From contig CAXXOU010000004.1 in assembly GCA_963677495.2 (NCBI GenBank), positions 1,280,001 to 1,344,000 of the forward strand: a DNA stretch of 64,000 nt. The letters are read 5' to 3'. Shown here piece after piece: positions 11,117-57,613 of this stretch (the first letter of the stretch is position 1; each line of letters starts with the position of its first letter). A program made the translations under genes and the position numbers. The stretch is from Candidatus Cloacimonadales bacterium (lineage in GTDB: Bacteria > Cloacimonadota > Cloacimonadia > Cloacimonadales > JAFGVF01). A model generated the notes under the pieces. The model did not search any database, was not told where the DNA came from, and saw nothing but the letters and a program-made list of their open reading frames with translations.

Positions 11117-12373
11117 TTAGCTATATATTTTACCTTTTCGAATCACACTCTTTATACTATTCAAAGCTTCAATGCCCTGATAAGGATTAAACAGATTAGT
11201 TCGTTCTTTTAGCTCATAACCATGATCAATATCTACTAAAATGAGATCAGCAAAGTATCCGGATTGAATTAAACCCTTATTATGTGATTCTCCGATGATA
11301 CGAGCCGGATTGGTGGATAGTAATCTGCATAGATGCATTAAGTTGTTATCATGCAAATCATGAATAACATTAAAAGCAAGGGGGATAAGATAATCAATAC
11401 CGCATAAACCGTTGGGTATCTTCATCAGTTCAGATTTATACTGCGTTTTATCAGAGATGCTAAATGGGCAATGATCTGTAGAAAGTAACTCAATAGCTCC
11501 TAACTGCACTAAACATATTAGGTTCTGTCTGTTTATAGCATCTCCGAAATAGGGACTACACAGATAGTTGTACCCATCACTTTTTTTGTAAACTTCATCT
11601 GTAAAAATCAGATATTGAGGACAAGTCTCATAAGTTACATATTCTGATTCAATATAGCTAACTGCATTGGATAGATGGACGACATGAAAATGTACCTTAG
11701 TTCTTTCAGCAATCTCCACTATTCTGTGAACAGCATATCTCTCGGCTCTTTGAGAATAGCTTGAATCAATATCTTCAACTTTTACGAACTGCTTTTCCTG
11801 TAATATCTCATCGTCCTGACAATGCACCATGATTGTAATCTCTTTATTTGAGAAACGCTTAGCAAAAGATTCTATCTGTTCATATGTTGAGAAGAGTCCG
11901 TTCTTTTTGTAGGTAGTATAGAACTTGAACGTATTCCAACCATTATCAATCAGTTCTTCAATATCTCTTAAGTCATTAGGAGAGAATGAAGTCGGAGTTA
12001 AGTGCCAATGAATATCTGTAGTAATTATGGATTTATACTTATTAACAGTGTCCTCTATCGTTTGTTTCAAAGTCATTCCCTTTTTTTGGGTAATGAAGCT
12101 ACAAATAGTAGTAATACCTGATTGCAACGCTACTTTAGAACCTTTCTCATACGTATCTGCTATATAATATTCTCCAATCTTATCTTGCAGATGAACATGA
12201 AAGTCAATAAATCCGGGAAAGAGGTGTAAACCTTTTGCATCAATTACTTGCACATCTTCGGCTAAGATATCAGGTTTTACTTGTTCAATCATATCCCCTG
12301 ATATTAAAACATCAGCATCAGTAACATGATTCGGATTAACAACTTTAGCATTCTTGATCAGTAATTTAGACAT
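11117..12373 (-). CDS. Dihydropyrimidinase/hydantoinase (cyclic amidohydrolase, HydA/HyuA-like)
   Basis: PGFIDFHVH, FKFY (carbamylated Lys), VHCQD, HVVHLS, ETCPQYL, TDHCPF. Start moved to MSKLL at 12373. Confidence 0.8.
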   Translation of the reverse strand: MSKLLIKNAKVVNPNHVTDADVLISGDMIEQVKPDILAEDVQVIDAKGLHLFPGFIDFHVHLQDKIGEYYIADTYEKGSKVALQSGITTICSFITQKKGMTLKQTIEDTVNKYKSIITTDIHWHLTPTSFSPNDLRDIEELIDNGWNTFKFYTTYKKNGLFSTYEQIESFAKRFSNKEITIMVHCQDDEILQEKQFVKVEDIDSSYSQRAERYAVHRIVEIAERTKVHFHVVHLSNAVSYIESEYVTYETCPQYLIFTDEVYKKSDGYNYLCSPYFGDAINRQNLICLVQLGAIELLSTDHCPFSISDKTQYKSELMKIPNGLCGIDYLIPLAFNVIHDLHDNNLMHLCRLLSTNPARIIGESHNKGLIQSGYFADLILVDIDHGYELKERTNLFNPYQGIEALNSIKSVIRKGKIYS

Positions 12374-13517
12374 TCTTTTTTGCACTCTCTATATCTTTTA
12401 GTCCATGTCCCGTAACTAATAGGACAACTTGCTCATCTGCTTTTACTACACCTTTAAGACTATCTAAAGCTGAATATGTAACTGCAGCTGCAGGTTCTGC
12501 GAAAATACCTGATTTCCTGAAAAGGGCTTTTTGAGCTTTAAGTATCTCCTCTTCAGGTACATTAACTGTTATACCATTGAATTGTTTTACATAATCTGAC
12601 GCCATATAGACGTTCGAAGGAGCCTTAACACTGATTGAATCAGCAATTGTATTAGGGTTTATTGCATCTCTATAAACCCCTGTTTCAATACAATTATTGA
12701 TAGCATCAGAGGTAGCTGTTTGCACAGAAACCAGTCTTGGTAGTTTGTTAATAAAACCAACCGTATATAAATCCTCAAAGCCTTTTGCGACTCCGGAAAG
12801 AATAACACCATCACCTACAGGAATTACAATATAATCGGGGACTTTGAATCCATTCTGCTCATAAATTTCAAAAGCTACTGTTTTCTTTCCCTCAATAGTT
12901 AGAGGATGATATGCAGTGTTTCTGTTAAGCGTTCCATTAGTAATTGTATCATCAATTGATACTTTAAAAGCATCATCATAAGTTCCTTCTACTTCAATAA
13001 CTTCAGCACCGCTAAGTTTCATCTGTATCAGCTTTGCTTCAGGAGCAGAAGCAGGCACATATATCTTTGCTTTTATATCAGTTGAAGCACAGATTGTAGC
13101 TAAGGCAGATGCTGCATTTCCGGTCGAAGCACAAACAACCTCTTTCCTATTCAGTCTGTTTGCTTCCGCGACAACTAAAAATGAAGCTCTGTCCTTTAAA
13201 GAACCGCTTGGATTGCAACCATCAAACTTAATAGATACATTGAAGCCAAACTCATCACTTAACTTGTCAGATCTGAAGAAAGGAGTATTACCTATACTTA
13301 TTGGTGGGAAATACTTGCTATTCACAGGCGAAAAGAGATTCCAGTCAGGTTGTTTGAAATTAAACTCACGCTTAATCTTCTCGTAATCAAGCACAGTCTT
13401 CAAGACCCCTTTTAATGGAGTACCGGGAGTCCAATCTTTCCCACACACATCACATAAATAATGAATCTCTTCAGTTGAGTACTTCTTCCCGCACTCTATG
13501 CACTCATAGTACTGCAT
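12366..13517 (-). CDS. Threonine synthase-like fold-type II PLP enzyme
   Basis: N-terminal CxxC..CxxC, NPSGSLKDR (PLP Lys), ASTGNAA, PVGDG, EPAAA, TGHGLKD. Confidence 0.85.
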   Translation of the reverse strand: MQYYECIECGKKYSTEEIHYLCDVCGKDWTPGTPLKGVLKTVLDYEKIKREFNFKQPDWNLFSPVNSKYFPPISIGNTPFFRSDKLSDEFGFNVSIKFDGCNPSGSLKDRASFLVVAEANRLNRKEVVCASTGNAASALATICASTDIKAKIYVPASAPEAKLIQMKLSGAEVIEVEGTYDDAFKVSIDDTITNGTLNRNTAYHPLTIEGKKTVAFEIYEQNGFKVPDYIVIPVGDGVILSGVAKGFEDLYTVGFINKLPRLVSVQTATSDAINNCIETGVYRDAINPNTIADSISVKAPSNVYMASDYVKQFNGITVNVPEEEILKAQKALFRKSGIFAEPAAAVTYSALDSLKGVVKADEQVVLLVTGHGLKDIESAKKNV

Positions 13518-13518
13518 T

Positions 13519-14721
13519 CTACTTACCGTTCAATTGTGCAACCAATCCGGCATAGAAAGCTGTAGCATCGCTTAAATCAGATACTCTTATTCTTTCATTC
13601 GGTGCATGAGCTTGATCTTCGTCACCGGGACCGAATCCCATACATTTAATTTCTGGATGTTTCCCCATTATGAAAACACAGTTTGTTGAGAAAGTCCATT
13701 TATCGATAAGTGGTTTCTTGTTAAATATATTAATAAAAGCTGATTCTGCTGTTTTAAGGTAGGGTGAATCCTTTTCTAAAACCCAGGTTGGATAATATTT
13801 TTCAACAGGATATACTTTTCCAGTATAGGCTTTTTCTTCGTAAGTAAGAACCTTAATGTTTGCTTCCACACCTGCTTTTTCTGCACATTCATTCAACTGC
13901 TTTACAGCAAGTTCCTTCGTTTCTCCATCGGTCAGTCTTCTATCAACTTGGAGATATGCATAATCAGCTACAGCACATTGAGAAGGGCTATCGGATTTGA
14001 ATACTGAAGTTGTAATTGTCCCTTTTCCAAGAAAATCATCATGCATGAGATTATCGTTCAGTTTTTCAATCTCTAATGCTATGCGAGCCATTTTGTAGAT
14101 AGCATTGTCCCCTCTTTCCGGAGCTGAACCATGACAAGAAATCCCTTTTACTTCAGCTGATATTTCCATTCTACCGCGTTGTCCACGATAGATATTAAGG
14201 GAAGTCGGTTCAGTGCTGACAACAAGCTCAGGTCTTATATTATCTTCCTTAATCATGTGTTCCCAGGCAATTCCATCGCAATCCTCTTCCATCACAGTCC
14301 CTGTAAAGAGGATAGTAAACTCATTATTCAAATCTAATTCTTTAATCAGTTTGGCAGCATAAACCATAGATGCTAAACCGCCTTTTTGATCAGAAGTACC
14401 TCTTCCCCACAGATACCCGTCAGCAATGTGTCCGCTAAACGGTTCAAAATCCCAATTCTCTCTGTTGCCGGGATATACTGTATCGATATGAGCATCGAAA
14501 GCTATGAGTCTTTTACCACTACCTATTCTGCCAATAATAGAGCCTAAAGCATCGATTTTAATCTCATCAAATTCAAGCTTTTCCATTTCTTTCTTGATTA
14601 CTTCTACTACATCTTTCTCTTTCATCGAAAATGAAGGAGTCTGAACTAAACGGGAAAGAAAGTCTGCTATCTCGGGTTCAATTTCTTTTGCTCTATCTAA
14701 AATCTTCTTATACATTTCCAT
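13519..14721 (-). CDS. ygeY: YgeY-family M20 metallohydrolase
   Basis: FDAHIDTV, GRGTSDQKGG, TVMEEDCDG, TEPT, RGQRGRMEI, CHGSAPERG, WTFSTN, AHAPNE. Confidence 0.88.
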   Translation of the reverse strand: MEMYKKILDRAKEIEPEIADFLSRLVQTPSFSMKEKDVVEVIKKEMEKLEFDEIKIDALGSIIGRIGSGKRLIAFDAHIDTVYPGNRENWDFEPFSGHIADGYLWGRGTSDQKGGLASMVYAAKLIKELDLNNEFTILFTGTVMEEDCDGIAWEHMIKEDNIRPELVVSTEPTSLNIYRGQRGRMEISAEVKGISCHGSAPERGDNAIYKMARIALEIEKLNDNLMHDDFLGKGTITTSVFKSDSPSQCAVADYAYLQVDRRLTDGETKELAVKQLNECAEKAGVEANIKVLTYEEKAYTGKVYPVEKYYPTWVLEKDSPYLKTAESAFINIFNKKPLIDKWTFSTNCVFIMGKHPEIKCMGFGPGDEDQAHAPNERIRVSDLSDATAFYAGLVAQLNGK

Positions 14722-14730
14722 TAATATCTC

Positions 14731-16059
14731 CTAAAATCTCTTCCATAATTCTTTTGATAACGCTCTTGACCTTTTATTTATCTCAACTTCATCTAAATCA
14801 AGAGTAAGTAACTTGTTTTCCATAAGGATTCTACCATTACAGATGGTCGTATCAACCGGGGTAGCACTTATCCCATATATTAAATGTCCAAGGGCAGTTG
14901 AACTGCTTAGTTCGGTTGGTGCAAGGTAGTCACATAGTATAACATCAGCTTTATAGCCTTTATTGATTTGACCTGTTTGCAGGCCATTAAACAGACGATT
15001 AACTATCAGGGCATTGTTCTTGTACAAAGTATTTGCAACTTGCATAAATGCAGCGGTAGGATTCTCTTGTTTAAGATGTTGAGCCCACATTGCTACTCGC
15101 ACTTCCTGAGCCATATCAACAGTCATAGCATCAGTACCTAATCCGGTTAGAATACCATGATTATTGAGCTTCACAAGATCAGCTATACCAACAGCATTAT
15201 TCATGTTTGATTGAGGGTTATGCACGATAATCGTATCTGTACTTCCCAGTATATCATACTCTTCTTCATTAAGATGTACACCATGGGCACAGATTGTTTT
15301 TTGTCCGAGTACCCCTGCTTTATGAAGTCTTTCAACGACACGCAAACCTGTCATTTTAATAGTTTCCTGCTGGTCACTTTCAGCTTCTGCACAATGAATA
15401 TGAAAGCCTGTGTCAAAGCCATTATTGGCATCAACAGCCTTTTGCATCGTCTTATCTGAGATTGTGAATGATGCATGCATTCCGAACATACCTGAGAGCA
15501 TATCACTATTCCGTTTTTTAGTATGCTTTATGAACTCAATATTCTCCTGAATACCTTCTTCCATTATCTTAGCACCATCCCTGTCGGAAAGCTCATAACA
15601 TAAGCTTCCTCTCAATCCCGTTTGGACAAAACCCTTCTCTATCTCGGAAAGTGAGCCTAACACAGCATAAGGGCTTGCATGATGGTCTATAAGAGTAGTG
15701 CAACCTTTTTTGATTGCTTCTATTTGCATGATTAATGCACTGTAATGTACATCTTCAAGCATCAGCTTTCTATCCAGACGCCACCATAGATTTTTAAGAA
15801 CTTCACTGAAGTCAGCTGATGGTTCAGCTTTCCCGAGACCTCGAACCATAGTGGAATAGAAATGCATATGAGCATTTATGTATCCCGGCATGATAACTTT
15901 TCCGGTTGCATCTATTTCTTTATCGAAAGAGCCATCTGCTGTACCTTTAGGATAGAATCCTTCTATCAATTCATCTTGAATCACCAGATCATGGTTGTAT
16001 AAAACATCCTGCTTAGTATTCAGGGTTATAATAATCCCATTCTTTATTCTAATTCGCAT
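14731..16059 (-). CDS. ssnA: SsnA-family amidohydrolase
   Basis: NAHMHFYS, LWWRLD, DHHASP, GMHASFT, HIHCAE, HNPQSNMNNAVG, GTD. Confidence 0.88.
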   Translation of the reverse strand: MRIRIKNGIIITLNTKQDVLYNHDLVIQDELIEGFYPKGTADGSFDKEIDATGKVIMPGYINAHMHFYSTMVRGLGKAEPSADFSEVLKNLWWRLDRKLMLEDVHYSALIMQIEAIKKGCTTLIDHHASPYAVLGSLSEIEKGFVQTGLRGSLCYELSDRDGAKIMEEGIQENIEFIKHTKKRNSDMLSGMFGMHASFTISDKTMQKAVDANNGFDTGFHIHCAEAESDQQETIKMTGLRVVERLHKAGVLGQKTICAHGVHLNEEEYDILGSTDTIIVHNPQSNMNNAVGIADLVKLNNHGILTGLGTDAMTVDMAQEVRVAMWAQHLKQENPTAAFMQVANTLYKNNALIVNRLFNGLQTGQINKGYKADVILCDYLAPTELSSSTALGHLIYGISATPVDTTICNGRILMENKLLTLDLDEVEINKRSRALSKELWKRF

Positions 16060-16068
16060 AATAAATCC

Positions 16069-18531
16069 TTATTCCTTCAAAGCTTCCGATTCTTCTTGAG
16101 TGCGCTCACGCATAAACATAGCTCCGGTAAAGCACTTTTGCACACAAATACTACATCCTATACACTTTTCAGGATTTGTTTCTGGAATACCCTCTTTATT
16201 CAATTCAATTGCCATATATGGACAACGAGCACAGTTTCCACACGATAAACATAACTCTGCATTTACATCTGAAATCTTCTTAACAGAGTTCAGGTCCAAG
16301 AAATCAGTAACAGGATTAGGTAATGCAACCCCTCGAAGTTCAGCAACACTTTTGAGCCCTTTCTCCTGCAAATAATATGATAATCCTTCATGCAAATCAG
16401 TTATATAATTAACACCATACTTAGTTGGTGCTGTACAGAACTGAACAGTTCCCGCACCCAAAGCTAAGAAATCTGCAGCAGCTTTGTAGTTCATCGGCCC
16501 ACCATTACCGGAGATATATAAACCTTCATTTGATGCATTAGCGAGTGTAAGATTAGAGATATTTCTAACCCCTTCCCCACTCAAACCAACGATAATACCT
16601 TCGTCCCACTCAGCTTTGCCAGTATCTCTAAATTCAAGAGATGGGAACGAATTAGCTAAAGTAACTCCTGCTTTTTTATTCGGATATTTATCCATTACGG
16701 CTTTTATGGCTCTAAGAATTGGCACGACAGATGTAACCGCGCCGGTGAGTTTAAATAGTTTAGGAACCGCAGGATTAGATACTTCCATGATCCACTCTAC
16801 AATCTTGCCTGTAAGCTTTGCGTTCTGAGAAACAATATCACCTTCAGTTCCATCTCCACCTTGAGGGCATGATAGCGAATACTCTACTCCATGCACTCCT
16901 GCAGCTTCAAGTTTCTTCGTATTTGATTGCCAAACTGCTTTATCCTCTTCATCATTACCAGTCACAGGTCCACCCGTAGATACCATTATCAGTCTATCAG
17001 GGTATTCCTCAACCAGTTGGGCTGCTTCCTTTGCTGCTCTTTCTAAAGGGTGACCTGAAACATTATCGCAATTTGCATAAGTATCATTTGTTATTTTAAA
17101 CATATACTCACCGGGGATATGGATATCAAGACCATCAAAGACAGTCTTCATTACTCCGCCTGCCCATCCGGCATCTAGGGCTTTCTTCATCTGCTCATAA
17201 CCATCAGATGGTGGGGCTGCTGAAAGAATAAAAGGAGATTGTAAAGTCTTACCAAAGAAATCACAGCTAATATCAATCGGGTGCTTAATAGTCCCATGTA
17301 ACTCAATATCTGAATGTAAATCATTCTCAGTCTTTGATATCACTATATTATTAATTGATGCATCAACTCGTTTTGCACAATTTTTACCTGATGCAACAGC
17401 TTCAACAACAGTGGATGCTCCATTCTTGTAATCACCTGCAAAGAACACATCTTTATGTTCTTCAAAATTGGTTTCTTGTCTTGAGCCTATCGCCCAGACT
17501 ATGTAATCATAGTTATTTATAAAATGCTCTGAACCTTTTATCGCTTTAATTCCCTGCAATGAAAACATTTCGCTTTCCAGTTTTACTCTTTCACCTGCTA
17601 CACTGAAATGCGTTGAGTTTGTTTTAGTGATAGCTGTAACACGCGTACGATAAATGGTATTAACATTGTTTTCTCTCAGTTCTTCTCGCTCTTTTTCTGA
17701 TAGTAGCATCTCAGAAGTGTTCTCAAGCATTATCATATCAACTAAAGCAGCTTCAGCTTTCTGGGCTGTCACTGCACAATCAAGAGCAATAGCTCCACCA
17801 CCAATCACGGCTATTGATTTACCGGAAAGGTCATCATCCAGCTTTAAAAACTTATCCCACCCGATTCCATATTCTTTACCGGGAACAGGTAAACTCATCA
17901 CATCCCAAAGACCTGTTGCTATAATCACTGCTTCATAGTCAGCTCTTAACTTATTTAAATCAGTAATCTCAGTATCGGGGAAGAACTGAATCCTATCCTC
18001 ATTCATAAAGTATTCGATATCCTCTCTCAGGATTGAATTATCAAGTCTATGGTCAGGTATATAAAGTATTGCCCCACCTATTTCTATCTCTCTATCATAA
18101 AGATCGATATTGTATCCCAATTGAGCTAACACTACTGTTGCACCCCATCCTGCCGGACCTGCACCCAGGATTGCTATAGTTTTATTGTTCCACTCAGGAA
18201 GCCTAAATTCAGGCATCGCATCCAATTCTCTTGCTTTTGCCATTATTGTAGCTTGGCAGTCAGGTATGTTAATAGCTCCATCAAAGAGTTTATGGGAACA
18301 TGCATCCATACAATGCTTATCAGGGCAGACATTCCCGCATACTGAACCAAGTGGATTCATAGAGAGTATCTTACTTGCAGCTCTTCTAAAACCACTCTTC
18401 TCCCCCATTTTTACTGCCATAAGAAAGTCTGCCGGACTACATCCGACCGGACAGGCAGTCATACAGGGTTTCTCTTCACAATAAGCACATCTTTCTATCT
18501 CGCTCTTTAATTGTGCATCAGTTAGTCGCAT
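16069..18531 (-). CDS. Fused dihydropyrimidine dehydrogenase-like flavo-Fe-S protein (PreT-like N-half, PreA-like FMN barrel, ferredoxin domain)
   Basis: CAYCEEKPCMTACP, CGNVCP..C...C, GAGPAG, GGGAIA; then SAAPP, KT, LSCPQG, KLT, GLSG; C-terminal Cys clusters including CIGCSICVQKC. Confidence 0.82.
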   Translation of the reverse strand: MRLTDAQLKSEIERCAYCEEKPCMTACPVGCSPADFLMAVKMGEKSGFRRAASKILSMNPLGSVCGNVCPDKHCMDACSHKLFDGAINIPDCQATIMAKARELDAMPEFRLPEWNNKTIAILGAGPAGWGATVVLAQLGYNIDLYDREIEIGGAILYIPDHRLDNSILREDIEYFMNEDRIQFFPDTEITDLNKLRADYEAVIIATGLWDVMSLPVPGKEYGIGWDKFLKLDDDLSGKSIAVIGGGAIALDCAVTAQKAEAALVDMIMLENTSEMLLSEKEREELRENNVNTIYRTRVTAITKTNSTHFSVAGERVKLESEMFSLQGIKAIKGSEHFINNYDYIVWAIGSRQETNFEEHKDVFFAGDYKNGASTVVEAVASGKNCAKRVDASINNIVISKTENDLHSDIELHGTIKHPIDISCDFFGKTLQSPFILSAAPPSDGYEQMKKALDAGWAGGVMKTVFDGLDIHIPGEYMFKITNDTYANCDNVSGHPLERAAKEAAQLVEEYPDRLIMVSTGGPVTGNDEEDKAVWQSNTKKLEAAGVHGVEYSLSCPQGGDGTEGDIVSQNAKLTGKIVEWIMEVSNPAVPKLFKLTGAVTSVVPILRAIKAVMDKYPNKKAGVTLANSFPSLEFRDTGKAEWDEGIIVGLSGEGVRNISNLTLANASNEGLYISGNGGPMNYKAAADFLALGAGTVQFCTAPTKYGVNYITDLHEGLSYYLQEKGLKSVAELRGVALPNPVTDFLDLNSVKKISDVNAELCLSCGNCARCPYMAIELNKEGIPETNPEKCIGCSICVQKCFTGAMFMRERTQEESEALKE

Positions 18532-20816
18532 CTCTTCTCCTCTTTTTTAGAAATAGCCATTAATACAGCTTCCGGAGTTGCCGGAAACTTCAAATTGTCA
18601 TTATTCGGATTACTCCTTTTCAAGACATCAAAAAGAGCTAACCACACTGATAGTCCATATATTAGCGGAGGTTCACCCACAGCTTTACTACCCATAACAC
18701 TTGCATGTTCACGCTCTACTGTTACCATTTCTACATTAAAATCATCAGGGATATCCATAATGCATGGAATCTTATAGGTTGAAGGATTTACTGCTAAATA
18801 GCGGCCTTTCCCGTCATAAGGCAGTTCCTCCATTGTACACAGTCCGAACCCTTGAGTAAAAGCTCCATAGATTTGCCCTTTATCAACTTCAGTGTTTATT
18901 GGCGAGGAGCTATCATGCACAATTGCAACCTTTTTGAGAGAGTATTCACCTGTATATAAATCAACTTCTACTACTGATAAAGCAGCCCCATAAACGAAGT
19001 AAGCAAAAGGTCTACCTTTTCCTTTATCATGGTCAAACTTAATTCCGGGTGTGTGATAAAAGCCATGAGCACCTAGATCAACACAATTGAAGTAGGCATA
19101 ATGAACCATTTCTGCAAATTGTACGACTGTAGTACCTGACACGAAACAATCATCTTCGATTCTAATCTCATCTACCCGATTAAGGCCTTTCTCATCCCAA
19201 TAGTTCCCTGCTATCTTCATTAATCTTTCTTTAAGTATCAAAGCAGCATTTCGGGCAGCATACCCATTAATATCACTACCGGTAGATGCAGCTGTTGGAG
19301 AGGCATTACCTACTCGTTTAGTATTAGCTGATTCGATTCTAATTCTATCCATACCAACACCAAGCGTCTCCGCAACAACCTGACAGACTTTAGTGTTAAC
19401 CTGTTGTCCCATCTCGATTCCACCATGTGATACAGAGATGGTTCCATCAGCATAAACCCAGATTAAGGAGGAACCCTGATTAAGAAATCCGGCAGTAAAA
19501 GATATACCAAACTTACCCGGAACAACTCCTATTCCCTGTTTAGTGTGAGAATGCTCTGAGTTGAAATTATCAACTTCCTCTTTGAGTTTATTGTACTGAA
19601 CATTATCCTTCAACACTTCCAGCATTTCACCACCCACAGGTTCAAACACTTCCATTCCATAAGGTGTGGTCTGATTCTCTTTGTAGCAGTTTATGCGTCT
19701 AATCTCTAAAGCATCTATTCCCAGTTTTTGTGCTGCGATATCAAGAGCATACTCGATACTCATGATACCCTGAGGTGCACCAAAACCTCTAAATGCTGTG
19801 TTTGGAGGTAGATTTGTCCTGCATGGATAACCAACAAACGATGAGTTCGGGATATAATAAGCATGGTCTGAGTGATACAACCCTCTTTCCAGTATTGCTA
19901 TTGATAGGTCTGTGTAAGCACCACCATTTGAATAGAGAATATTCTCAAAAGCTGTTATAGTTCCATCATTCTTAATACCAAGCTTAAACTTATTTTTAAA
20001 AGGGTGTCTTTTCCCCGTAGATTGCATATCAGTTGGTCTTCTCAATTGTAGTAGTACAGGCTTCTTTGATACATATGCTCCTAGAGCTGACAATGCTCCC
20101 CAAAGTGTGGCTTGTGATTCTTTTCCGCCAAATGCTCCACCTAACCTTTTCACATCAACAGTAATCTGATTAGATGTTAAACCTAAGACCTTAGCAGTTA
20201 CTTCCTGAGTCTCGGAAGTTGATTGTGTTGATGAATACAGAGTAAAACTTCCATTATCTTCAGGAATACTCAAACAGCGTTGGGTCTCTAAGTAGAAATG
20301 CTCCTGAGCCCCGGTTTCAATTGTCTTTTCAATAATCAGATCAGCTTCTTCGAAACCTTTTAACAGGTCGCCCCTCTTAATCATTCTGGGGTTTATATAG
20401 TATTCACTCGCTTCAACTGCATCATCTATTGATAGAATAGGTTTCAGTTCCTTAATCTCAAGTTTCACTTTACTTGCTGCGTATTCAGCGGTCCAGGCAT
20501 CATTTGCTAAAACAATGGCAATCGGTTGTCCATAATACTTAACTATCTTTTCTGGCAATAAAGGCTGATTATCCCCATTCCCATGGGCAATGTTATTCTC
20601 TCCCGGAATATCTTTAGCTGTAACTACTCTAATATTCCCTTCAATCTGCTTCAATTCGGAAGTATCAATTGATACAATCTCCCCATGAGCAATCTCTGAA
20701 GTGACAACATGGGCATAAAGCATTCCTTGCGGTATATTCTCCTCCCCTATGAACCTCGAAGTACCACAGACATGGAGTTTCCCGCTTAAATGTTTACTTT
20801 CTTTAACTTTATTCAT
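18522..20816 (-). CDS. xdhB: Xanthine dehydrogenase molybdopterin-binding subunit
   Basis: QEHFYLETQ, STQ, GGAFGGKES, AFRGFG, HGGIEMGQ, SPTAAS, SKAVGEPP. Confidence 0.9.
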   Translation of the reverse strand: MNKVKESKHLSGKLHVCGTSRFIGEENIPQGMLYAHVVTSEIAHGEIVSIDTSELKQIEGNIRVVTAKDIPGENNIAHGNGDNQPLLPEKIVKYYGQPIAIVLANDAWTAEYAASKVKLEIKELKPILSIDDAVEASEYYINPRMIKRGDLLKGFEEADLIIEKTIETGAQEHFYLETQRCLSIPEDNGSFTLYSSTQSTSETQEVTAKVLGLTSNQITVDVKRLGGAFGGKESQATLWGALSALGAYVSKKPVLLQLRRPTDMQSTGKRHPFKNKFKLGIKNDGTITAFENILYSNGGAYTDLSIAILERGLYHSDHAYYIPNSSFVGYPCRTNLPPNTAFRGFGAPQGIMSIEYALDIAAQKLGIDALEIRRINCYKENQTTPYGMEVFEPVGGEMLEVLKDNVQYNKLKEEVDNFNSEHSHTKQGIGVVPGKFGISFTAGFLNQGSSLIWVYADGTISVSHGGIEMGQQVNTKVCQVVAETLGVGMDRIRIESANTKRVGNASPTAASTGSDINGYAARNAALILKERLMKIAGNYWDEKGLNRVDEIRIEDDCFVSGTTVVQFAEMVHYAYFNCVDLGAHGFYHTPGIKFDHDKGKGRPFAYFVYGAALSVVEVDLYTGEYSLKKVAIVHDSSSPINTEVDKGQIYGAFTQGFGLCTMEELPYDGKGRYLAVNPSTYKIPCIMDIPDDFNVEMVTVEREHASVMGSKAVGEPPLIYGLSVWLALFDVLKRSNPNNDNLKFPATPEAVLMAISKKEEKRCD

Positions 20817-22273
20817 ATACGATTCCTAACTCTTTCAAAATGTTTCTTAATATGGTTCTTAATCAGTGTTGATCGATATTCGTCACTTCCCCTAACATCA
20901 CTGATAGGAGTGAACTCTTCAGCTGCAATCTCGGCAGCCTTCTCAATCACCTCATCTGTCAATGGCTTGAAGTTAAGGTACTCCATTGTTTTGTTTGCTA
21001 AGGCAGGATGCTCTTTCACGCCACCAAATGCTATTGTTACTCCTAAGATATCTCCCTCATCTATATACACAGACATGGCTGAGTTAACAGAAGATATATC
21101 CACGTTCTTTCGTTTGGAGCTTTTGATAAATCCGGAGTATGTATAGTTCTTTTTCGGCACTACAATAGCCTCAATATACTCACAATCATCTAAATCTATA
21201 TCTTTATATCCCTTATAGAACTCGCTCAGAGTAATGAACCGATCACCACATCCACCATCAAGTAGAAGCTTCGCTTCCAGTCCTAATAGCATAGATGCAC
21301 CATCAGCTACAGGACTTGCATTGCTGATGTTACCACCTAATGTGGCAACATTGCGGATTTGAGTGGAGGACATTATCTTGATTGTATCAACTAAGGCAGG
21401 GAAATACTTCTGTATAACTGCATTGTTCATTATGTCAGTAAGAGTTGCAGTTGAGCCTATCTTCACAACTCCGTCTAATTCATCTATATAGGTAAGCTCT
21501 ATCACCTCTGAAATATCTAAATACTCTTTACTGAATTCACGTCGTATGTTCGATTCGACATTCAAATCTGTGGCTCCGGCGATAAACTTATATCCACCTC
21601 TGCTAGTTAGCATATATAGTTCATCAAGATCCTTTGGCATTAAGTAACAATCAACCGGATAGTGATCTTCAACCTGCATCGGGAAGTTTTTTATCTCTTT
21701 CGGGATTGCCTCTAAATCTTTAATAATAGCTTCTTTGGATTCAGGCAGGATATCATTCTTATTGATCAGCTTGTTATGCATACTTTTGATCAGCTCTTCC
21801 CCGGCTTTGACAATATGTTTGTATCCTGTACATCTGCAAAGATTACCCTCTAAAGCAGTCTTAAAATCCGCCAAGGATGGGTTCCCATTTTCCATAAGCA
21901 AAGCGAATACACTCATAACAATACCCGGCGTGCAGAAGCCGCACTGGGTTCCATGATTGTCAAACAACACTTTCTGGATGAAGTGCATTTTATCAGGTGT
22001 ACCCAATCCTTCAGTTGTCACTACATGCTTGCCATGAAGCTTTGTCGCAGGATAGATACATGATGTAATTGATTTATAACGTAGCTTTGATTCCCAAATC
22101 TCTCCGATTGCGATAGTACATGCCCCACAATCACCTTCCGAGCAGACCTCTTTCACACTCTGCATACCAAATCTATGCAACAACTCCAACGCTGTCTCAG
22201 CCGGCTTACATTCTGTCTGCACCAACCACCCGTTCAATCTGAACTCAATTCTGTTAACCCTTATAGTTTTCAT
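20813..22273 (-). CDS. xdhA: Xanthine dehydrogenase small subunit (2x[2Fe-2S] + FAD, fused)
   Basis: CSEGDCGAC, QCGFCTPG, GNLCRCTGY, AGATDL, QIRNVATLGGNI, PISDVR. Confidence 0.9.
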   Translation of the reverse strand: MKTIRVNRIEFRLNGWLVQTECKPAETALELLHRFGMQSVKEVCSEGDCGACTIAIGEIWESKLRYKSITSCIYPATKLHGKHVVTTEGLGTPDKMHFIQKVLFDNHGTQCGFCTPGIVMSVFALLMENGNPSLADFKTALEGNLCRCTGYKHIVKAGEELIKSMHNKLINKNDILPESKEAIIKDLEAIPKEIKNFPMQVEDHYPVDCYLMPKDLDELYMLTSRGGYKFIAGATDLNVESNIRREFSKEYLDISEVIELTYIDELDGVVKIGSTATLTDIMNNAVIQKYFPALVDTIKIMSSTQIRNVATLGGNISNASPVADGASMLLGLEAKLLLDGGCGDRFITLSEFYKGYKDIDLDDCEYIEAIVVPKKNYTYSGFIKSSKRKNVDISSVNSAMSVYIDEGDILGVTIAFGGVKEHPALANKTMEYLNFKPLTDEVIEKAAEIAAEEFTPISDVRGSDEYRSTLIKNHIKKHFERVRNRI

Positions 22274-22512
22274 AATCTCTACCTCGTTTGATAGCTTAAG
22301 TTATCTGTTTTTGACCAACTGCCAATTATCAGGATACTTTTTTAGTTGTAAAGTAGAAAGTGGGGATTAACAATTAAAGAGCTATATTGTTACTCAGCTA
22401 GCGTCCATAGGAACTTGTGAGTACGACGCTAAGCGAAAGATATCAAGCAATTCTTCAGTAAGTTGTTCAATTCCTGTCATATATCCAATCATAGGACTAA
22501 TATTATTTAATG

Positions 22513-22656
22513 CATGTCAATACTAGTTTCAGAGCACGATTTGCTTCCCGGTTATAGCTCTATCGAGCTATGTGCAAGTGGGGACACTCGCACTACAAAT
22601 GTACTGCGACTCTCCTGAGTTGCTGTGCCGACAAAGTCGGCAATTTCCACTGACCG
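22513..22656. repeat. Composite hairpin element: GTAG-type REP-like unit plus one 64-bp-array unit
   Basis: Matches 44076-44177 and 43659-43774. Contains ATAGCTC-TATC-GAGCTAT, GTGCAAGTG-GGGA-CACTCGCAC-TAC and TGCCGAC-AAA-GTCGGCA. Confidence 0.85.
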
Positions 22657-22757
22657 AGACTTTGAAATCAATTACTCATGGAGAGGAAATCCTTATCAGT
22701 CGTATGGACTCGTGCTTTTTTGATTGTTTGTAGAATGCAAAATGTTAGATGAACAAT

Positions 22758-22963
22758 CATCTGTACCTTCGTAATGGTCGTAGACCTTCCGAATGGTACA
22801 CTTCGAAGGGACTGACTCGGACTTTCGTTGCGATGATAATGTGACGCGAGAACGGATCAGGTTTAGAGAACCGGAATTAGCAAACCAAGAACATATTCGA
22901 CCCACTTTGGGGTCGTGGATTCTAATGGGTCATTCAACCATGCATTTCATGCATGGCTACTCA
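22758..22963 (+). repeat. ~205-bp direct repeat, copy 1
   Basis: Aligns by eye with 24344-24555. A sub-part also resembles 128-170. Confidence 0.9.
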
Positions 22964-23077
22964 TATTTAATCACTCTGTGATTATTCCTGCTTCAGTAGA
23001 TATATTCAGTACCTTTTGCAATGACTTACGATAATTCCGGTCACCTGTGTGAGTTTAAGATCATGGGGAACCGACTG

Positions 23078-23200
23078 AAAGGAGCTTGCTTGAGAAACGA
23101 AAGCAACTCATTTTCAAAGGAGCTTGCTTGAGAAACGAAAGCAACTCATTTTCAAAGGAGTTTGCTTGAGAAACGAAAGCAACTCATTTTCAAAGGAGCT
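23078..23200. repeat. 38-bp tandem repeat, 3 full copies plus a partial
   Basis: AAAGGAGCTTGCTTGAGAAACGAAAGCAACTCATTTTC at 23078, 23116 and 23154 (one substitution); partial copy at 23192. Confidence 0.95.
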
Positions 23201-23400
23201 CGTGAGACAGTTGTCGAACAACTTCTTGGAATTATACTTCGAAGTACGCAATTCCCAGAACTCCCGATGGTCGTAATAGTGACCGCTACTGTGCGATCCT
23301 ATGGTTAGATTATACTAAAATACTGACCCTGAAGGGGTAGTAGATTCTCGGTACGGGAAAATCGACCAAGGGTGGTTCGATTTACATCACAAGAGCACCA

Positions 23401-23428
23401 TTGAGAAGGTCTTAAGACCATTCTCAAG
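23401..23428 (-). terminator. Probable terminator hairpin
   Basis: TTGAGAAGGTCTTAAGACCATTCTCAA palindrome just past the stop of the 270-aa gene. Confidence 0.5.
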
Positions 23429-23437
23429 GTAGTTATT

Positions 23438-24910: not shown

Positions 24911-24963
24911 TGTCAATGGCATTTTAAATTGGTACAGTTTGGCATTTAAAAATGGTACAGTCT

Positions 24964-25695
24964 TCATTTTTGAAAATTCCTTAGTCTAAAGCTGTCTCCG
25001 AGCATTGTAATTGGTTGTGAGTGATGGAGTAATCTATCAAGAATAGCAGTTGCTATCACATTGTCGTTAAAAATAGCTCCCCATTCATTAAACAACCTAT
25101 TCGATGTTATGATTACTGATCTAAATTCGTATAAGAGATGGATGAGTCTAAAGAACAGATTAGCTGCCTTTGTCTGGAGAGGAAGATACCCCATCTCATC
25201 TATAACTATCAGATCATTCTTGGCTATATTGCTTAGATATTTATCTATGTTGTTATCTGCTTCAGCTAGTACAAGTTCTTCGATAAGGTTGTTCAGATTA
25301 TAAAACACCACCTTATATCCTGCCTTTATTGCTTCATAACTGAGTGCTGTTGCAACATGAGTCTTACCTACTCCCGGAGGTCCCATTAAAATTATATTCC
25401 TCCTCTGCTCCAGCCAGACAAAGTTCTTCCACTCCTTTACTTGTCTTTTGGTTATTACTTGTTGATAAGCATAGTCGAACTCATCAAAGGTCTTTATTAC
25501 CGGGATGTGAGCCTGTTTAAGTCTTCTGTTGATATTGGTTTGATTCCTTCCTGAGTTCTCTTTTTCAAATAGATAATGTACGAACTCCAGATAAGTCATA
25601 TTCTGTTTCTCTGCTTCTAAAACTGCACTTTCAAGAGTATTCAAAATATGAGTACAACGAGCCCTTTTGATGTATGTTTTAGTTATCTCTATCAT
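24964..25695 (-). CDS. istB: IS21 helper ATPase IstB
   Basis: GPPGVGKTH, IDEMGY, ITSN, ATAILDRLLHH, GDSFR. Confidence 0.95.
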   Translation of the reverse strand: MIEITKTYIKRARCTHILNTLESAVLEAEKQNMTYLEFVHYLFEKENSGRNQTNINRRLKQAHIPVIKTFDEFDYAYQQVITKRQVKEWKNFVWLEQRRNIILMGPPGVGKTHVATALSYEAIKAGYKVVFYNLNNLIEELVLAEADNNIDKYLSNIAKNDLIVIDEMGYLPLQTKAANLFFRLIHLLYEFRSVIITSNRLFNEWGAIFNDNVIATAILDRLLHHSQPITMLGDSFRLRNFQK

Positions 25696-25696
25696 C

Positions 25697-27172
25697 TTAT
25701 AACACCTTCATGTAGTCATCTAATGAGCGCTCTATTAATGAACTCTCTGAGTCTTGTTGTGGTTCTGATTCTGATAATTCATTTAGCTTCATTTGTCTTA
25801 CTTTTGCATTCAGAAGCTTCTCTATGGCTGTTGCCTTTACATGCGAAAGAGTCATTACCTCAGGAAGCACTGACTCCCATACATCTGTTTCATAGTTACG
25901 CTTAAACTTGCTTAAGGCTCTCAACTGATCCCTTGCTATTTTAGGGTTATCATTAACAAGCCTCTGGATTAGTTCTTCTCCTTGGATATATTCACTCATC
26001 TCATCCTTTACTCGCTCAATAAGCTCTTGTAGCACTACCGTAAAATCCCGATAATGATTAGTGTTTTTGATGATTTTGCCTTTTTCTGTGCATAGCTCAT
26101 GTTGGCAGATTTCCTTTCTTGTATAAATATCCATCACCACTAAAGTGCTCTTTTCTTTTTGCACATATACCTGTTTTCGCTGATACTCTAATGGAACAGA
26201 GTACTTATTACCCTCATACGAGATTAAGCCTGTTTTATCTGCATTACGAACTTCTAAAGTGAAGATAAACTCTGGAATATCTTTTAGCTTTAACCTCTCT
26301 TCTTGCCATACTTCTGATGGTACTTTACGGGTTGTGCCATGGGTTCTGCCGTTAAAGTGTAAAAGCCACTCAAGTCCGCGTGAACGCAGGTCTGCCAGGT
26401 CTTTGAACTCTTTGCCATACATAAAGCCATGCTTTACTTCTGAGACATTACGCTCTACTTTACCCTTGCTTTGTGGATCATAGCCTTCGCATACATGAGG
26501 ATGAAAGCCCGTTTTTGCTGCAAACTGATGGAACTGATTATTTAAGATTACTTCCCGATAGCGTTCCTGTATTACTACAAGCTTTGTCTGGTCGTAAACA
26601 CACTCTGAAGGGATACCTTCAAAATAGATAAAAGCTTCACGATGAGCTTCAATAAACCTTGATGTGTTATATGGTGTTGTGCTCCAATGGACATAGCTTT
26701 GACGCGAGTGGGAAAGCACAAAAACTATAAAATAAACTCTTTGACGTTTATTACCCAAAACTACTTTCATCTCACCTGGATCAACTTGAACCTGAACACC
26801 GGGAGCCGTCTCGATTACTGCATAATTACGGTATTTATCGACAGGATAAGTCTGCTTTAGCTTACGAACAAAATCTCGGAAAGCTCTGTCTTTTGCTTTT
26901 ATCTCAGGGAACTTTTTCTTAACTTCTAAATATAGTACACTAGCTCTTAATCGTGGATATTTGCTAAGCCTTTCGCGGACATATTGCTCACATATGGCAA
27001 AACTGCTTTCACGAATGCTATTGTTTATTAGTTCCATGAACTCATCAAGTGTCATATTTATGTATTTACCTACTGTTGTCTTTGATAGAGACAACTCCTC
27101 TGCGATCTTACGCTGACTATGCCCTTGCTTATGCATAGTTTTTATTGAATGATACACTTCTACTCCAATCAT
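25697..27172 (-). CDS. istA: IS21 DDE transposase IstA
   Basis: N-terminal HTH, ETAPGVQVQVD, YDQTK, PQSKGKVER, YSVP. Start moved to MIGVEVY (GGAG RBS). Confidence 0.95.
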   Translation of the reverse strand: MIGVEVYHSIKTMHKQGHSQRKIAEELSLSKTTVGKYINMTLDEFMELINNSIRESSFAICEQYVRERLSKYPRLRASVLYLEVKKKFPEIKAKDRAFRDFVRKLKQTYPVDKYRNYAVIETAPGVQVQVDPGEMKVVLGNKRQRVYFIVFVLSHSRQSYVHWSTTPYNTSRFIEAHREAFIYFEGIPSECVYDQTKLVVIQERYREVILNNQFHQFAAKTGFHPHVCEGYDPQSKGKVERNVSEVKHGFMYGKEFKDLADLRSRGLEWLLHFNGRTHGTTRKVPSEVWQEERLKLKDIPEFIFTLEVRNADKTGLISYEGNKYSVPLEYQRKQVYVQKEKSTLVVMDIYTRKEICQHELCTEKGKIIKNTNHYRDFTVVLQELIERVKDEMSEYIQGEELIQRLVNDNPKIARDQLRALSKFKRNYETDVWESVLPEVMTLSHVKATAIEKLLNAKVRQMKLNELSESEPQQDSESSLIERSLDDYMKVL

Positions 27173-27270
27173 ACCTACTCCAAACTGTCTTGAAGTAGTC
27201 ATTTTTAAAGGTTGGCAGTTTTGTACCACTTTTCACTGCCATCGTGTACCATTTCTCACTGCCATTGACA

Positions 27271-55039: not shown

Positions 55040-55244
55040 GATCAATTCCTCTGAAGTGCACTATTTGCAAGGTCTGCGACCATTCCAAAGGTACAGATTA
55101 CAGATGCTTACAAGGAGTTCTTTAGAGTAATGTCTTCCATCATTAGTGTCAATGGCAGTGAGAAATGGTACACGATGGCAGTGAAAAGTGGTACAAAACT
55201 GCCAACCTTTAAAAATGACTACTTCAAGACAGTTTGGAGTAGGT

Positions 55245-56720
55245 ATGATTGGAGTAGAAGTGTATCATTCAATAAAAACTATGCATAAGCAAGGGCATAG
55301 TCAGCGTAAGATCGCAGAGGAGTTGTCTCTATCAAAGACAACAGTAGGTAAATACATAAATATGACACTTGATGAGTTCATGGAACTAATAAACAATAGC
55401 ATTCGTGAAAGCAGTTTTGCCATATGTGAGCAATATGTCCGCGAAAGGCTTAGCAAATATCCACGATTAAGAGCTAGTGTACTATATTTAGAAGTTAAGA
55501 AAAAGTTCCCTGAGATAAAAGCAAAAGACAGAGCTTTCCGAGATTTTGTTCGTAAGCTAAAGCAGACTTATCCTGTCGATAAATACCGTAATTATGCAGT
55601 TATCGAGACGGCTCCCGGTGTTCAGGTTCAAGTTGATCCAGGTGAGATGAAAGTAGTTTTGGGTAATAAACGTCAAAGAGTTTATTTTATAGTTTTTGTG
55701 CTTTCCCACTCGCGTCAAAGCTATGTCCATTGGAGCACAACACCATATAACACATCAAGGTTTATTGAAGCTCATCGTGAAGCTTTTATCTATTTTGAAG
55801 GTATCCCTTCAGAGTGTGTTTACGACCAGACAAAGCTTGTAGTAATACAGGAACGCTATCGGGAAGTAATCTTAAATAATCAGTTCCATCAGTTTGCAGC
55901 AAAAACGGGCTTTCATCCTCATGTATGCGAAGGCTATGATCCACAAAGCAAGGGTAAAGTAGAGCGTAATGTCTCAGAAGTAAAGCATGGCTTTATGTAT
56001 GGCAAAGAGTTCAAAGACCTGGCAGACCTGCGTTCACGCGGACTTGAGTGGCTTTTACACTTTAACGGCAGAACCCATGGCACAACCCGTAAAGTACCAT
56101 CAGAAGTATGGCAAGAAGAGAGGTTAAAGCTAAAAGATATTCCAGAGTTTATCTTCACTTTAGAAGTTCGTAATGCAGATAAAACAGGCTTAATCTCGTA
56201 TGAGGGTAATAAGTACTCTGTTCCATTAGAGTATCAGCGAAAACAGGTATATGTGCAAAAAGAAAAGAGCACTTTAGTGGTGATGGATATTTATACAAGA
56301 AAGGAAATCTGCCAACATGAGCTATGCACAGAAAAAGGCAAAATCATCAAAAACACTAATCATTATCGGGATTTTACGGTAGTGCTACAAGAGCTTATTG
56401 AGCGAGTAAAGGATGAGATGAGTGAATATATCCAAGGAGAAGAACTAATCCAGAGGCTTGTTAATGATAACCCTAAAATAGCAAGGGATCAGTTGAGAGC
56501 CTTAAGCAAGTTTAAGCGTAACTATGAAACAGATGTATGGGAGTCAGTGCTTCCTGAGGTAATGACTCTTTCGCATGTAAAGGCAACAGCCATAGAGAAG
56601 CTTCTGAATGCAAAAGTAAGACAAATGAAGCTAAATGAATTATCAGAATCAGAACCACAACAAGACTCAGAGAGTTCATTAATAGAGCGCTCATTAGATG
56701 ACTACATGAAGGTGTTATAA
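55245..56720 (+). CDS. istA: IS21 transposase IstA
   Basis: Protein identical to copy 1. Confidence 0.95.
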   Translation: MIGVEVYHSIKTMHKQGHSQRKIAEELSLSKTTVGKYINMTLDEFMELINNSIRESSFAICEQYVRERLSKYPRLRASVLYLEVKKKFPEIKAKDRAFRDFVRKLKQTYPVDKYRNYAVIETAPGVQVQVDPGEMKVVLGNKRQRVYFIVFVLSHSRQSYVHWSTTPYNTSRFIEAHREAFIYFEGIPSECVYDQTKLVVIQERYREVILNNQFHQFAAKTGFHPHVCEGYDPQSKGKVERNVSEVKHGFMYGKEFKDLADLRSRGLEWLLHFNGRTHGTTRKVPSEVWQEERLKLKDIPEFIFTLEVRNADKTGLISYEGNKYSVPLEYQRKQVYVQKEKSTLVVMDIYTRKEICQHELCTEKGKIIKNTNHYRDFTVVLQELIERVKDEMSEYIQGEELIQRLVNDNPKIARDQLRALSKFKRNYETDVWESVLPEVMTLSHVKATAIEKLLNAKVRQMKLNELSESEPQQDSESSLIERSLDDYMKVL

Positions 56721-56721
56721 G

Positions 56722-57453
56722 ATGATAGAGATAACTAAAACATACATCAAAAGGGCTCGTTGTACTCATATTTTGAATACTCTTGAAAGTGCAGTTTTAG
56801 AAGCAGAGAAACAGAATATGACTTATCTGGAGTTCGTACATTATCTATTTGAAAAAGAGAACTCAGGAAGGAATCAAACCAATATCAACAGAAGACTTAA
56901 ACAGGCTCACATCCCGATAATAAAGACCTTTGATGAGTTCGACTATGCTTATCAACAAGTAATAACCAAAAGACAAGTAAAGGAGTGGAAGAACTTTGTC
57001 TGGCTGGAGCAGAGGAGGAATATAATTTTAATGGGACCTCCGGGAGTAGGTAAGACTCATGTTGCAACAGCACTCAGTTATGAAGCAATAAAGGCAGGCT
57101 ATAAGGTGGTGTTTTATAATCTGAACAACCTTATCGAAGAACTTGTACTAGCTGAAGCAGATAACAACATAGATAAATATCTAAGCAATATAGCCAAGAA
57201 TGATCTGATAGTTATAGATGAGATGGGGTATCTTCCTCTCCAGACAAAGGCAGCTAATCTGTTCTTTAGACTCATCCATCTCTTATACGAATTTAGATCA
57301 GTAATCATAACATCGAATAGGTTGTTTAATGAATGGGGAGCTATTTTTAACGACAATGTGATAGCAACTGCTATTCTTGATAGATTACTCCATCACTCAC
57401 AACCAATTACAATGCTCGGAGATAGCTTTAGACTAAGGAATTTTCAAAAATGA
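56722..57453 (+). CDS. istB: IS21 helper ATPase IstB
   Basis: Differs from copy 1 by one V/I substitution. Confidence 0.95.
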   Translation: MIEITKTYIKRARCTHILNTLESAVLEAEKQNMTYLEFVHYLFEKENSGRNQTNINRRLKQAHIPIIKTFDEFDYAYQQVITKRQVKEWKNFVWLEQRRNIILMGPPGVGKTHVATALSYEAIKAGYKVVFYNLNNLIEELVLAEADNNIDKYLSNIAKNDLIVIDEMGYLPLQTKAANLFFRLIHLLYEFRSVIITSNRLFNEWGAIFNDNVIATAILDRLLHHSQPITMLGDSFRLRNFQK

Positions 57454-57613
57454 AGACTGTACCATTTTTAAATGCCAAACTGTACCAATTTAAAATGCCA
57501 TTGACAATCATTAGTATTCGTTTAATTCAACAATAACTTGACTTGATAAGCTCTGCTTGACAGATTGAGCATCTCTAAAATTTTGAGAAAAAGTAAGTTA
57601 TAGGAAATATAGA

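Follow-up and report, generated by a model that had tools for sequence, protein, structure and literature searches.

The seven genes at positions 11117 to 22273 of a 64,000-nt stretch of a Candidatus Cloacimonadales genome (the window) probably belong to a variant of the reductive urate (2,8-dioxopurine) pathway. Together with a second module around ygeW and a carbamate kinase gene at a third place, this operon is likely one of three scattered loci of a single pathway, and the window would then hold half of a larger conserved system. The variant has two fold-type-II pyridoxal phosphate (PLP) enzymes, ThrCL in the operon and PALP486 beside ygeW, and a dihydropyrimidine dehydrogenase (DPD)-like reductase where the published pathway has YgeX and YgfK. 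It was not until 2025 that the anaerobic urate pathway was worked out, in gut bacteria, and the texts of Li et al. 2025 (PMC12507026) and Liu et al. 2025 (10.1101/2025.04.24.650524) define the roles of XdhD/DOPDH, YgfK, SsnA, HyuA, YgeW, YqeA, YgeY, and YgeX. The variant appears common to at least 575 species-level genomes of uncultured anaerobes from sediment, groundwater, peat, and digesters.

The operon and its two probable partner loci

All seven open reading frames (ORFs) lie on the minus strand and are tightly packed (Table 1). In gene order, their junctions are overlaps of 4 and 10 nt, gaps of 9, 9, and 1 nt, and a final overlap of 20 nt, which shrinks to 8 nt if the cyclic amidohydrolase starts at the ATG at position 12373, a better fit to the usual N-terminus. 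We called domains with Pfam and families with NCBIfam equivalog models, which carry curated bit cut-offs. SsnA exceeds both of its cut-offs (NF005540, 521 bits against 444; TIGR03314, 490 bits against 455.5) and is the single copy over the cut-off in a search of the whole genome, while YgeY scores 553 bits with NF009555 against a cut-off of 321; they are 36% and 52% identical to their E. coli namesakes. The XdhA- and XdhB-type subunits match the two-subunit architecture of the XdhAB (R. capsulatus type) xanthine dehydrogenase and score just under the equivalog cut-offs (TIGR02963, 389 bits against 467; TIGR02965, 795 bits against 849.5). The cyclic amidohydrolase reaches 223 bits with the D-hydantoinase model TIGR02033, under its cut-off of 393, and is 26% identical to E. 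coli HyuA, of which it is the probable counterpart. An initial annotation, made from the letters of the window alone, had described seven genes of these families overlapping or at most 10 bp apart, and the ORF calls, Pfam, and NCBIfam agree with it. Its assignment of the operon to the anaerobic urate/purine cluster type is borne out by the SsnA and YgeY scores and by the synteny survey described below, and domain and TIGR00260 evidence likewise upholds the PreT-PreA-type fusion that it saw in the place of YgfK and the ThrC-like enzyme.

The genome as a whole (3.41 Mb in 4 contigs, 37% G+C, 99.5% complete, with type-IX-secretion features) holds the remaining genes. A canonical YgeW, 66% identical to that of E. 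coli, scores 638 bits against a cut-off of 500 and is encoded 411 kb from the operon, within the second module, which spans C4:873835-880506. The initial annotation had rightly placed ygeW outside the operon; it had also named canonical, co-regulated genes elsewhere as an observation that would speak against its reading, and as far as presence goes, a canonical ygeW does lie elsewhere. Carbamate kinase (402 bits against a cut-off of 358; 46% identical to E. coli carbamate kinase/YqeA) is encoded at a third place, outside any arginine-deiminase cluster. As the initial annotation had stated for the operon, YgfK and YgeX are absent, and above the cut-offs they are absent from the whole genome: the top match to the YgfK model has 330 bits against 835, and the best match to the YgeX model TIGR03528 is ThrCL itself, with 24 bits against 532. 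We rejected the 330-bit match as YgfK, as it is a 1110-aa GltD/NuoG-like fusion next to NuoE/NuoF-like genes. The selenium-cofactor markers YqeB and YqeC gave zero matches in this 99.5% complete genome. Searches for xdhC and selD, which the initial annotation had proposed, found an XdhC-like protein in the second module and the selenophosphate synthetase SelD, which contains one in-frame TGA that is probably a selenocysteine codon.

A scan of one genome per species for relatives of ThrCL returned 575 genomes. We examined the best 80 of these relatives, counting a neighbor as a match when BLASTP of the locus ORFs gave at least 40% identity to a protein of this genome, and we set apart 43 well-flanked loci with at least 6 kb of upstream and 8 kb of downstream sequence. 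The titles of the best 80 loci span about ten phylum-level names (Cloacimonadota, Ignavibacteria, Verrucomicrobiota, Acidobacteriota/Holophagaceae, Bacteroidota, Planctomycetota, Myxococcota, KSB1, LCP-89, Fidelibacterota, Spirochaetota, and Bdellovibrio). The recurrent same-strand order is DPD-like reductase, SsnA, YgeY, ThrCL, (amidohydrolase), Moco subunit, FeS (iron-sulfur) subunit, YgeW, PALP486, (XdhC-like protein), with the counts given in Table 1. Since this order recurs in other phyla, the arrangement in the window is not a chance one. ThrCL lies directly 3′ of ygeY in 42 related loci. Of the 80 loci, 45 have an amidohydrolase at the hydantoinase position, although in just 3 does it reach 40% identity to the one in the window, and 10 have a MocA-like gene nearby. 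All twelve genes stand contiguously in one row in a Cloacimonadota metagenome-assembled genome (MAG; locus L030). The nearest public locus, on a 'Candidatus Cloacimonadales' MAG chromosome (L025), has the same seven genes at 68–92% protein identity, and about 207 kb separate ThrCL from PALP486 in the nearest relative. Most relatives keep one contiguous cluster, so it is in this lineage that a derived rearrangement divided the cluster into two modules.

Homology and synteny, on which every step of the route rests, lead us to propose the following pathway. XdhAB of the window would oxidize hypoxanthine and xanthine to urate, and the second Mo-hydroxylase with its 2Fe-2S subunit would reduce urate to 2,8-dioxopurine, as XdhD/DOPDH does. 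The single-chain DPD-like flavoenzyme would dearomatise 2,8-dioxopurine with NAD(P)H, the role of YgfK/UacX, SsnA would open the pyrimidine ring, and the cyclic amidohydrolase would convert the hydantoin to 2,3-diureidopropionate. One ureido group is predicted to undergo phosphorolysis by YgeW of the second locus, with the carbamate kinase of the third locus forming ATP from carbamoyl phosphate, and the other would be hydrolyzed by YgeY. With YgeX absent, the last step, from a beta-substituted alanine (2,3-diaminopropionate or albizziin) to pyruvate and ammonia, would fall to the ThrCL/PALP486 pair.

Table 1. Location and content of the features discussed, with the number of ThrCL loci in which a match was found. 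Locations without a contig label are positions in the window; C1 and C4 are contigs of the same genome.
Feature	Location	Strand	Domains, models or content	Best 80 loci	43 well-flanked loci
XdhA-type small subunit, 486 aa	20813..22273	-	Fer2_2, FAD_binding_5, CO_deh_flav_C; 2Fe-2S + FAD		
XdhB-type molybdopterin (Moco) subunit, 764 aa	18522..20816	-	TIGR02965	7	7
Single-chain DPD-like reductase, 820 aa	16069..18531	-	Fer4_20, Pyr_redox_2, DHO_dh, C-terminal 4Fe-4S dicluster (Fer4)	40	28
SsnA amidohydrolase, 442 aa	14731..16059	-	NF005540, TIGR03314	53	36
YgeY M20 hydrolase, 400 aa	13519..14721	-	NF009555	53	34
ThrCL, ThrC-like fold-type-II PLP enzyme, 383 aa	12366..13517	-	TIGR00260; N-terminal Cys4 ribbon		
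Cyclic amidohydrolase (hydantoinase/dihydropyrimidinase/allantoinase group), 422 aa (418 aa from ATG 12373)	11117..12385	-	TIGR02033		
Non-coding stretch upstream of operon, 1.16 kb	22274..23437	-	38-nt repeat; sigma-70-like site 22352-22325		
Second module	around ygeW		Moco subunit 746 aa, 2Fe-2S subunit 157 aa, YgeW, PALP486, MocA-like fragment, XdhC-like protein		
Second Mo-hydroxylase	C4:873835-876541		Moco + 2Fe-2S subunits	Moco 45; FeS 46	Moco 30; FeS 31
YgeW	C4:876538-877725			50	31
PALP486, CysK/CBS-like PLP enzyme, 486 aa	second module, beside ygeW			43	31
Carbamate kinase	C4:235480-236424				
SelD	C1:618556-619476	-	one in-frame TGA		
GltD/NuoG-like fusion, 1110 aa	C4:1155088-1158420				
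Fusion with NuoF-like, NuoE-like genes	C4:1155088-1160670				
IS21-family elements, 2360 nt	24911-27270 and 55147-57506	inverted	istA 510 aa, istB 243 aa		
NTPase-region protein, 1002 aa	7797-10805	-	STAND/AAA_22/AAA_16		
C25 (gingipain-type) peptidase, 1785 aa	1346-6703	+	type-IX-secretion sorting domain		
PGA_cap-domain protein, 979 aa	44254-47193	-	type-IX-secretion sorting domain		

The PLP enzymes ThrCL and PALP486

ThrCL could be taken for the organism's own threonine synthase, placed in the operon by happenstance. It scores 176 bits with TIGR00260, just over the cut-off of 167, it is the sole match to the ThrC model in the genome, and its relatives, of which there are thousands at 55–60% identity, are named threonine synthase in public sources. 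Its structure model (predicted local distance difference test, pLDDT, 90.9) has ThrC structures as its closest Foldseek matches, followed by threonine deaminases and serine racemases, and it shares with ThrC (PDB 2zsj, 6cgq, 2d1f, and 1uim) the fold (template modeling (TM) score 0.82–0.86 on the target), the PLP lysine, and about 30–33% identity. Unlike ThrC, however, ThrCL has an extra N-terminal Cys4 ribbon, invariant together with several motifs in an alignment of 30 relatives, and the ThrC motifs STGNT, NPYR(I/L)EGQKT, and VGNAGN are replaced by STGNA, HPLTIEGKKT, and VGDGVI, which are invariant in the ThrCL subfamily. We take the three swapped motifs to be the O-phosphohomoserine phosphate site of ThrC. 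The genome has no match to homoserine dehydrogenase (PF00742), which the same search found in 14 of 14 controls, and its best ThrB match has 37 bits against a cut-off of 168, alternative homoserine kinase types being outside the search. Given these absences in a 99.5% complete genome, threonine (and methionine) auxotrophy is probable for this organism. In addition, the place of ThrCL after ygeY is kept across phyla, and a second, better-scoring ThrC accompanies ThrCL in 28 of the 43 other genomes behind the well-flanked loci. From the missing homoserine dehydrogenase and the replaced motifs, we conclude that ThrCL is not a housekeeping threonine synthase; that it should be one after all is scarcely credible.

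PALP486 follows ygeW, which it always adjoins, in the same place that ygeX takes in E. coli. It belongs to a separate and very conserved family (mean column identity 75% over 35 sequences). The nearest structures to its model (pLDDT 85.5) are those of CBS, CysK, and beta-cyanoalanine synthase (TM 0.76–0.81 on the target); the core superposes on CysK/CBS, and the lysine and the Asn-loop align. In contrast to these enzymes, PALP486 is extended by about 70 residues at the N-terminus and about 150 at the C-terminus, and its score against the best solved CysK is just about 81 bits. Enzymes of all three kinds make aminoacrylate out of beta-substituted alanines. As diaminopropionate and albizziin are themselves beta-substituted alanines, CysK/CBS-type chemistry of PALP486 would fit the missing last step. 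In our alignments neither ThrCL nor PALP486 has a counterpart of YgeX Asp120.

The distribution of the three PLP enzymes is consistent with such a substitution. Among the 43 other genomes, all carrying ThrCL, YgeX exceeds its cut-off in none (the top score, in one genome, is 250 bits), PALP486 is found at E ≤ 1e-30 in 42 (full length in 41 of these, at 53–90% identity), and SsnA exceeds its cut-off in 37 and reaches at least 440 bits in 41. We also drew a sample of 301 genomes from one phylum, of the Acidobacteriota type, which shares genomes with the Acidobacteriota loci above. SsnA is present at E ≤ 1e-100 in 38 of these, none of which has YgeX over the cut-off, and 12 SsnA-negative controls contain ThrCL in no case and PALP486 in one. 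The reciprocal test, on bearers of YgeX, covered E. coli K-12 only, which has neither ThrCL nor PALP486 (best profile scores 89 and 53 bits). A Holophagaceae locus (L040) has canonical YgfK (903 bits against 835) and a Se-type XDH (874 bits against 830) alongside ThrCL, YgeW, PALP486, and SsnA, so that the PLP pair accompanies the pathway whichever reductase is used.

We found no paper describing this pair in the literature searched, supplements not included, and a search of the texts of PMC12507026 and 10.1101/2025.04.24.650524, apart from their supplements, turned up neither 'threonine' nor 'cysteine synthase'. According to the text of Li et al. (PMC12507026), YgeX was scored in genome neighborhoods by PF00291, a domain that also covers ThrCL and PALP486, so that survey, as there described, would not tell them from YgeX. 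The threonine synthase and cysteine synthase labels on the pair distort predictions of auxotrophy and sulfur metabolism and hide a purine-fermentation trait.

Redox enzymes and alternative readings

The XdhB-type subunit aligns with rat XOR (6adj) and keeps all seven positions compared (Q767, E802, R880, F914, F1009/T1010, and E1261), the purine-site residues of XOR. It is present in a minority of clusters. The best reading is that it feeds the pathway, as does the XDH of C. sporogenes, an organism in which two Mo-hydroxylases, one of them XDH-like and separate, are described in the text of 10.1101/2025.04.24.650524. On these grounds XdhAB is a probable hypoxanthine/xanthine-to-urate dehydrogenase. 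Across the clusters, the Mo-hydroxylase that stays constant is the one with the second Moco subunit, and by this synteny that subunit is the candidate urate/2,8-dioxopurine enzyme. It keeps the Arg and the catalytic Glu of rat XOR, has Asp for E802 and a change at the F1009/T1010 position, and is 27% identical to E. coli XdhD.

The 820-aa reductase combines a PreT-like half with a DHO_dh domain that just clears its cut-off (PF01180, 28 bits against 27). It aligns to pig DPD (1gt8) in four segments, with a Cys kept opposite the catalytic Cys671, and it shares the four-module architecture and this active-site Cys with both pig DPD and E. coli PreT-PreA. It differs from pig DPD in its score (just 147 bits), its length (820 against 1025 aa), and its purine rather than pyrimidine context, and from E. 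coli PreA in falling below the PreA equivalog cut-off (NF006183, 202 bits against 335). The YgfK model gives 122 bits against 835, and the 26% identity to E. coli YgfK is confined to the FAD module. We consider it likely, judging by domains and synteny, that this fusion stands in for YgfK/UacX.

Set against the published urate pathway, SsnA, YgeY, YgeW, and carbamate kinase are orthologue-like (36–66% identity, over the cut-offs), and in both a Mo-hydroxylase, a flavin/FeS reductase, and a cyclic amidohydrolase accompany a PLP enzyme of fold type II that acts, or here would act, at the end. In contrast, this genome has the DPD-like fusion for YgfK and ThrCL with PALP486 for YgeX, its XDH is of the FAD-containing XdhAB type, and its genes are spread over three loci. 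As in the text on C. sporogenes, there are two Mo-hydroxylases, one of them XDH-like. The preprint of Liu et al. (10.1101/2025.04.24.650524) reports, in its text, YqeB/YqeC in all cluster-bearing gut strains, whereas here YqeB/YqeC were not found in the genome and XdhC-like and MocA-like genes are present instead; that the selenium-cofactor system is apparently missing matters for the question of how Mo-hydroxylases reduce urate. The C. difficile uricolytic cluster, as described in the text of PMC12507026, agrees with this genome in two respects: a DHO_dh/PydA-type FMN enzyme, the PydA homologue UacX, replaces YgfK, and the pathway Mo-hydroxylase is without an FAD subunit of its own, as is the second module here (Moco + 2Fe-2S only). 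However, that account has UacX without the FAD/NAD(P)H domain, which is fused on here in a single chain like that of mammalian DPD, and has C. difficile using UacY and keeping YgeX, whereas here YgeW and carbamate kinase are kept. The initial annotation had inferred a pathway built by non-orthologous replacement and had allowed that the arrangement might already be characterized. This inference is partly right, but it covered half of the system and overlooked PALP486; a DPD/PydA-type replacement of YgfK is published (UacX, in the text of PMC12507026), and the PLP pair we did not find described.

The initial annotation had further suggested that the seven genes might be self-contained and purely hydrolytic, with no carbamoyl-phosphate step. 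ygeW, ygeX, and ygfK do lie outside the operon, and a hydrolytic variant is known from C. difficile, where, by the text of PMC12507026, UacY acts instead of YgeW and YqeA. This suggestion does not hold up against the canonical YgeW and the carbamate kinase encoded elsewhere in the genome: ygeW is clustered with ThrCL in 31 of the 43 well-flanked loci, and carbamate kinase is near 12 of the 80, and, with a UacY-type D-aminoacylase outside the search, we consider a self-contained operon very improbable. The domain content (DPD, dihydropyrimidinase-like, and M20 enzymes) and the kept catalytic Cys of DPD would also suit a reductive pyrimidine pathway, from uracil or thymine to beta-alanine, with xanthine dehydrogenase merely adjacent. 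Yet the M20 and TRZ/ATZ-type genes exceed the YgeY and SsnA equivalog cut-offs, the PreA model falls well short of its own, and the cluster accompanies YgeW, the Mo-hydroxylase, and, in Holophagaceae, canonical YgfK, which leaves the pyrimidine route a very improbable explanation.

The same enzyme logic could instead serve another N-heterocycle (xanthine directly, another oxopurine, or a pteridine-like ring), with intermediates unlike those of E. coli. This would accord with the low equivalog scores of both Mo-hydroxylases, the reductase, and the amidohydrolase, with the altered E802 and F1009/T1010 positions of the second Moco subunit, with the replacement of one PLP enzyme by two, and with the missing YqeB/YqeC markers. 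SsnA, YgeY, and YgeW, on the other hand, are near the characterized enzymes (36–66% identity), and since their substrates are the C3 ureido intermediates further down, much of the route is settled; a different substrate is thus unlikely. The variant urate pathway is the reading we prefer, and several observations weigh against it. No equivalog cut-off is reached by the amidohydrolase or by either Mo-hydroxylase. The sequences upstream of the operon and of the second module have one 12-mer and some 9–10-mers in common, about as many as chance would give, and we found no convincing common motif. Many of the compared genomes are incomplete MAGs, which makes absences among them soft. Verrucomicrobiota/Opitutaceae clusters (L038, L039, L044, L061, L072, L076, L079, L083, L090, L099, and L100) have no hydantoinase-like gene between ThrCL and the Moco subunit; hydantoin opening in these bacteria may be encoded elsewhere or done differently. 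Among the 38 SsnA genomes of the Acidobacteriota-type sample, PALP486 is present in 31 and ThrCL in only 22, with 11 sampled genomes having PALP486 and no ThrCL found, and PALP486 is thus a more constant partner of SsnA than ThrCL is. Three sampled genomes have a weaker YgeX-like gene, 35–40% identical to E. coli YgeX and below the family cut-off. In one genome such a gene (40% identical) stands beside SsnA and PALP486 with no ThrCL, and in two it occurs together with ThrCL and PALP486.

A strict rule that ThrCL replaces YgeX is too simple, given these combinations, and we rejected it. The YgeX-like gene lies inside the cluster at L106 (G168:C19, 6947-13117) and L110 (G036:C162), both in Acidobacteriota-type genomes, one with both PLP genes and one without ThrCL. 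Genomes that mix a YgeX-like gene with PALP486, with or without ThrCL, offer natural controls that should help to tell the roles of the three PLP enzymes apart. We speculate, with considerable reserve, that ThrCL and PALP486 are two new PLP activities rather than mere stand-ins for YgeX. A CysK/CBS-type enzyme might, for example, eliminate ammonia or urea from diaminopropionate or albizziin, and a repurposed threonine-synthase scaffold might take the other stereoisomer or regio-isomer or divert the C3 unit to serine or cysteine. It is possible, on the same tentative footing, that the pair, with a selenium-independent, XdhC-matured urate reductase, makes up the main environmental route of anaerobic purine mineralization, and the taxa we would tentatively name for it are Cloacimonadota, Ignavibacteria, Verrucomicrobiota, Acidobacteriota, and others.

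Surroundings of the operon

The non-coding stretch upstream of the operon contains 3.2 copies of a 38-nt unit (97% matches; positions 23078-23200) that matches no Rfam family. When the whole window was scanned against Rfam at gathering thresholds, one tRNA was the only match, with no riboswitch upstream of the operon. Between positions 10700 and 23500, promoter-like sites number 41 and terminator-like sites 4, where 39.8 and 7.0 were expected, so the former show no excess over chance. Two 100% identical IS21-family elements lie in inverted orientation 27.9 kb apart in the window, one of them about 2.6 kb upstream of the operon, and recent insertion sequence (IS) activity may have something to do with how the purine cluster came apart in this lineage. 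Just downstream of the operon lies a gene for a 1002-aa protein with a STAND/AAA_22/AAA_16 NTPase region and a weak BrxC/D-like match, which by these domains may be a defence or signalling ATPase. Elsewhere on contig C4, the GltD/NuoG-like fusion, its NuoF-like and NuoE-like neighbors, and an adjoining NADP-glutamate dehydrogenase look like an electron-bifurcating hydrogenase- or Nfn-like complex. The window also encodes two large secreted proteins, a C25 (gingipain-type) peptidase and a PGA_cap-domain protein, each with a C-terminal sorting domain for type-IX secretion.

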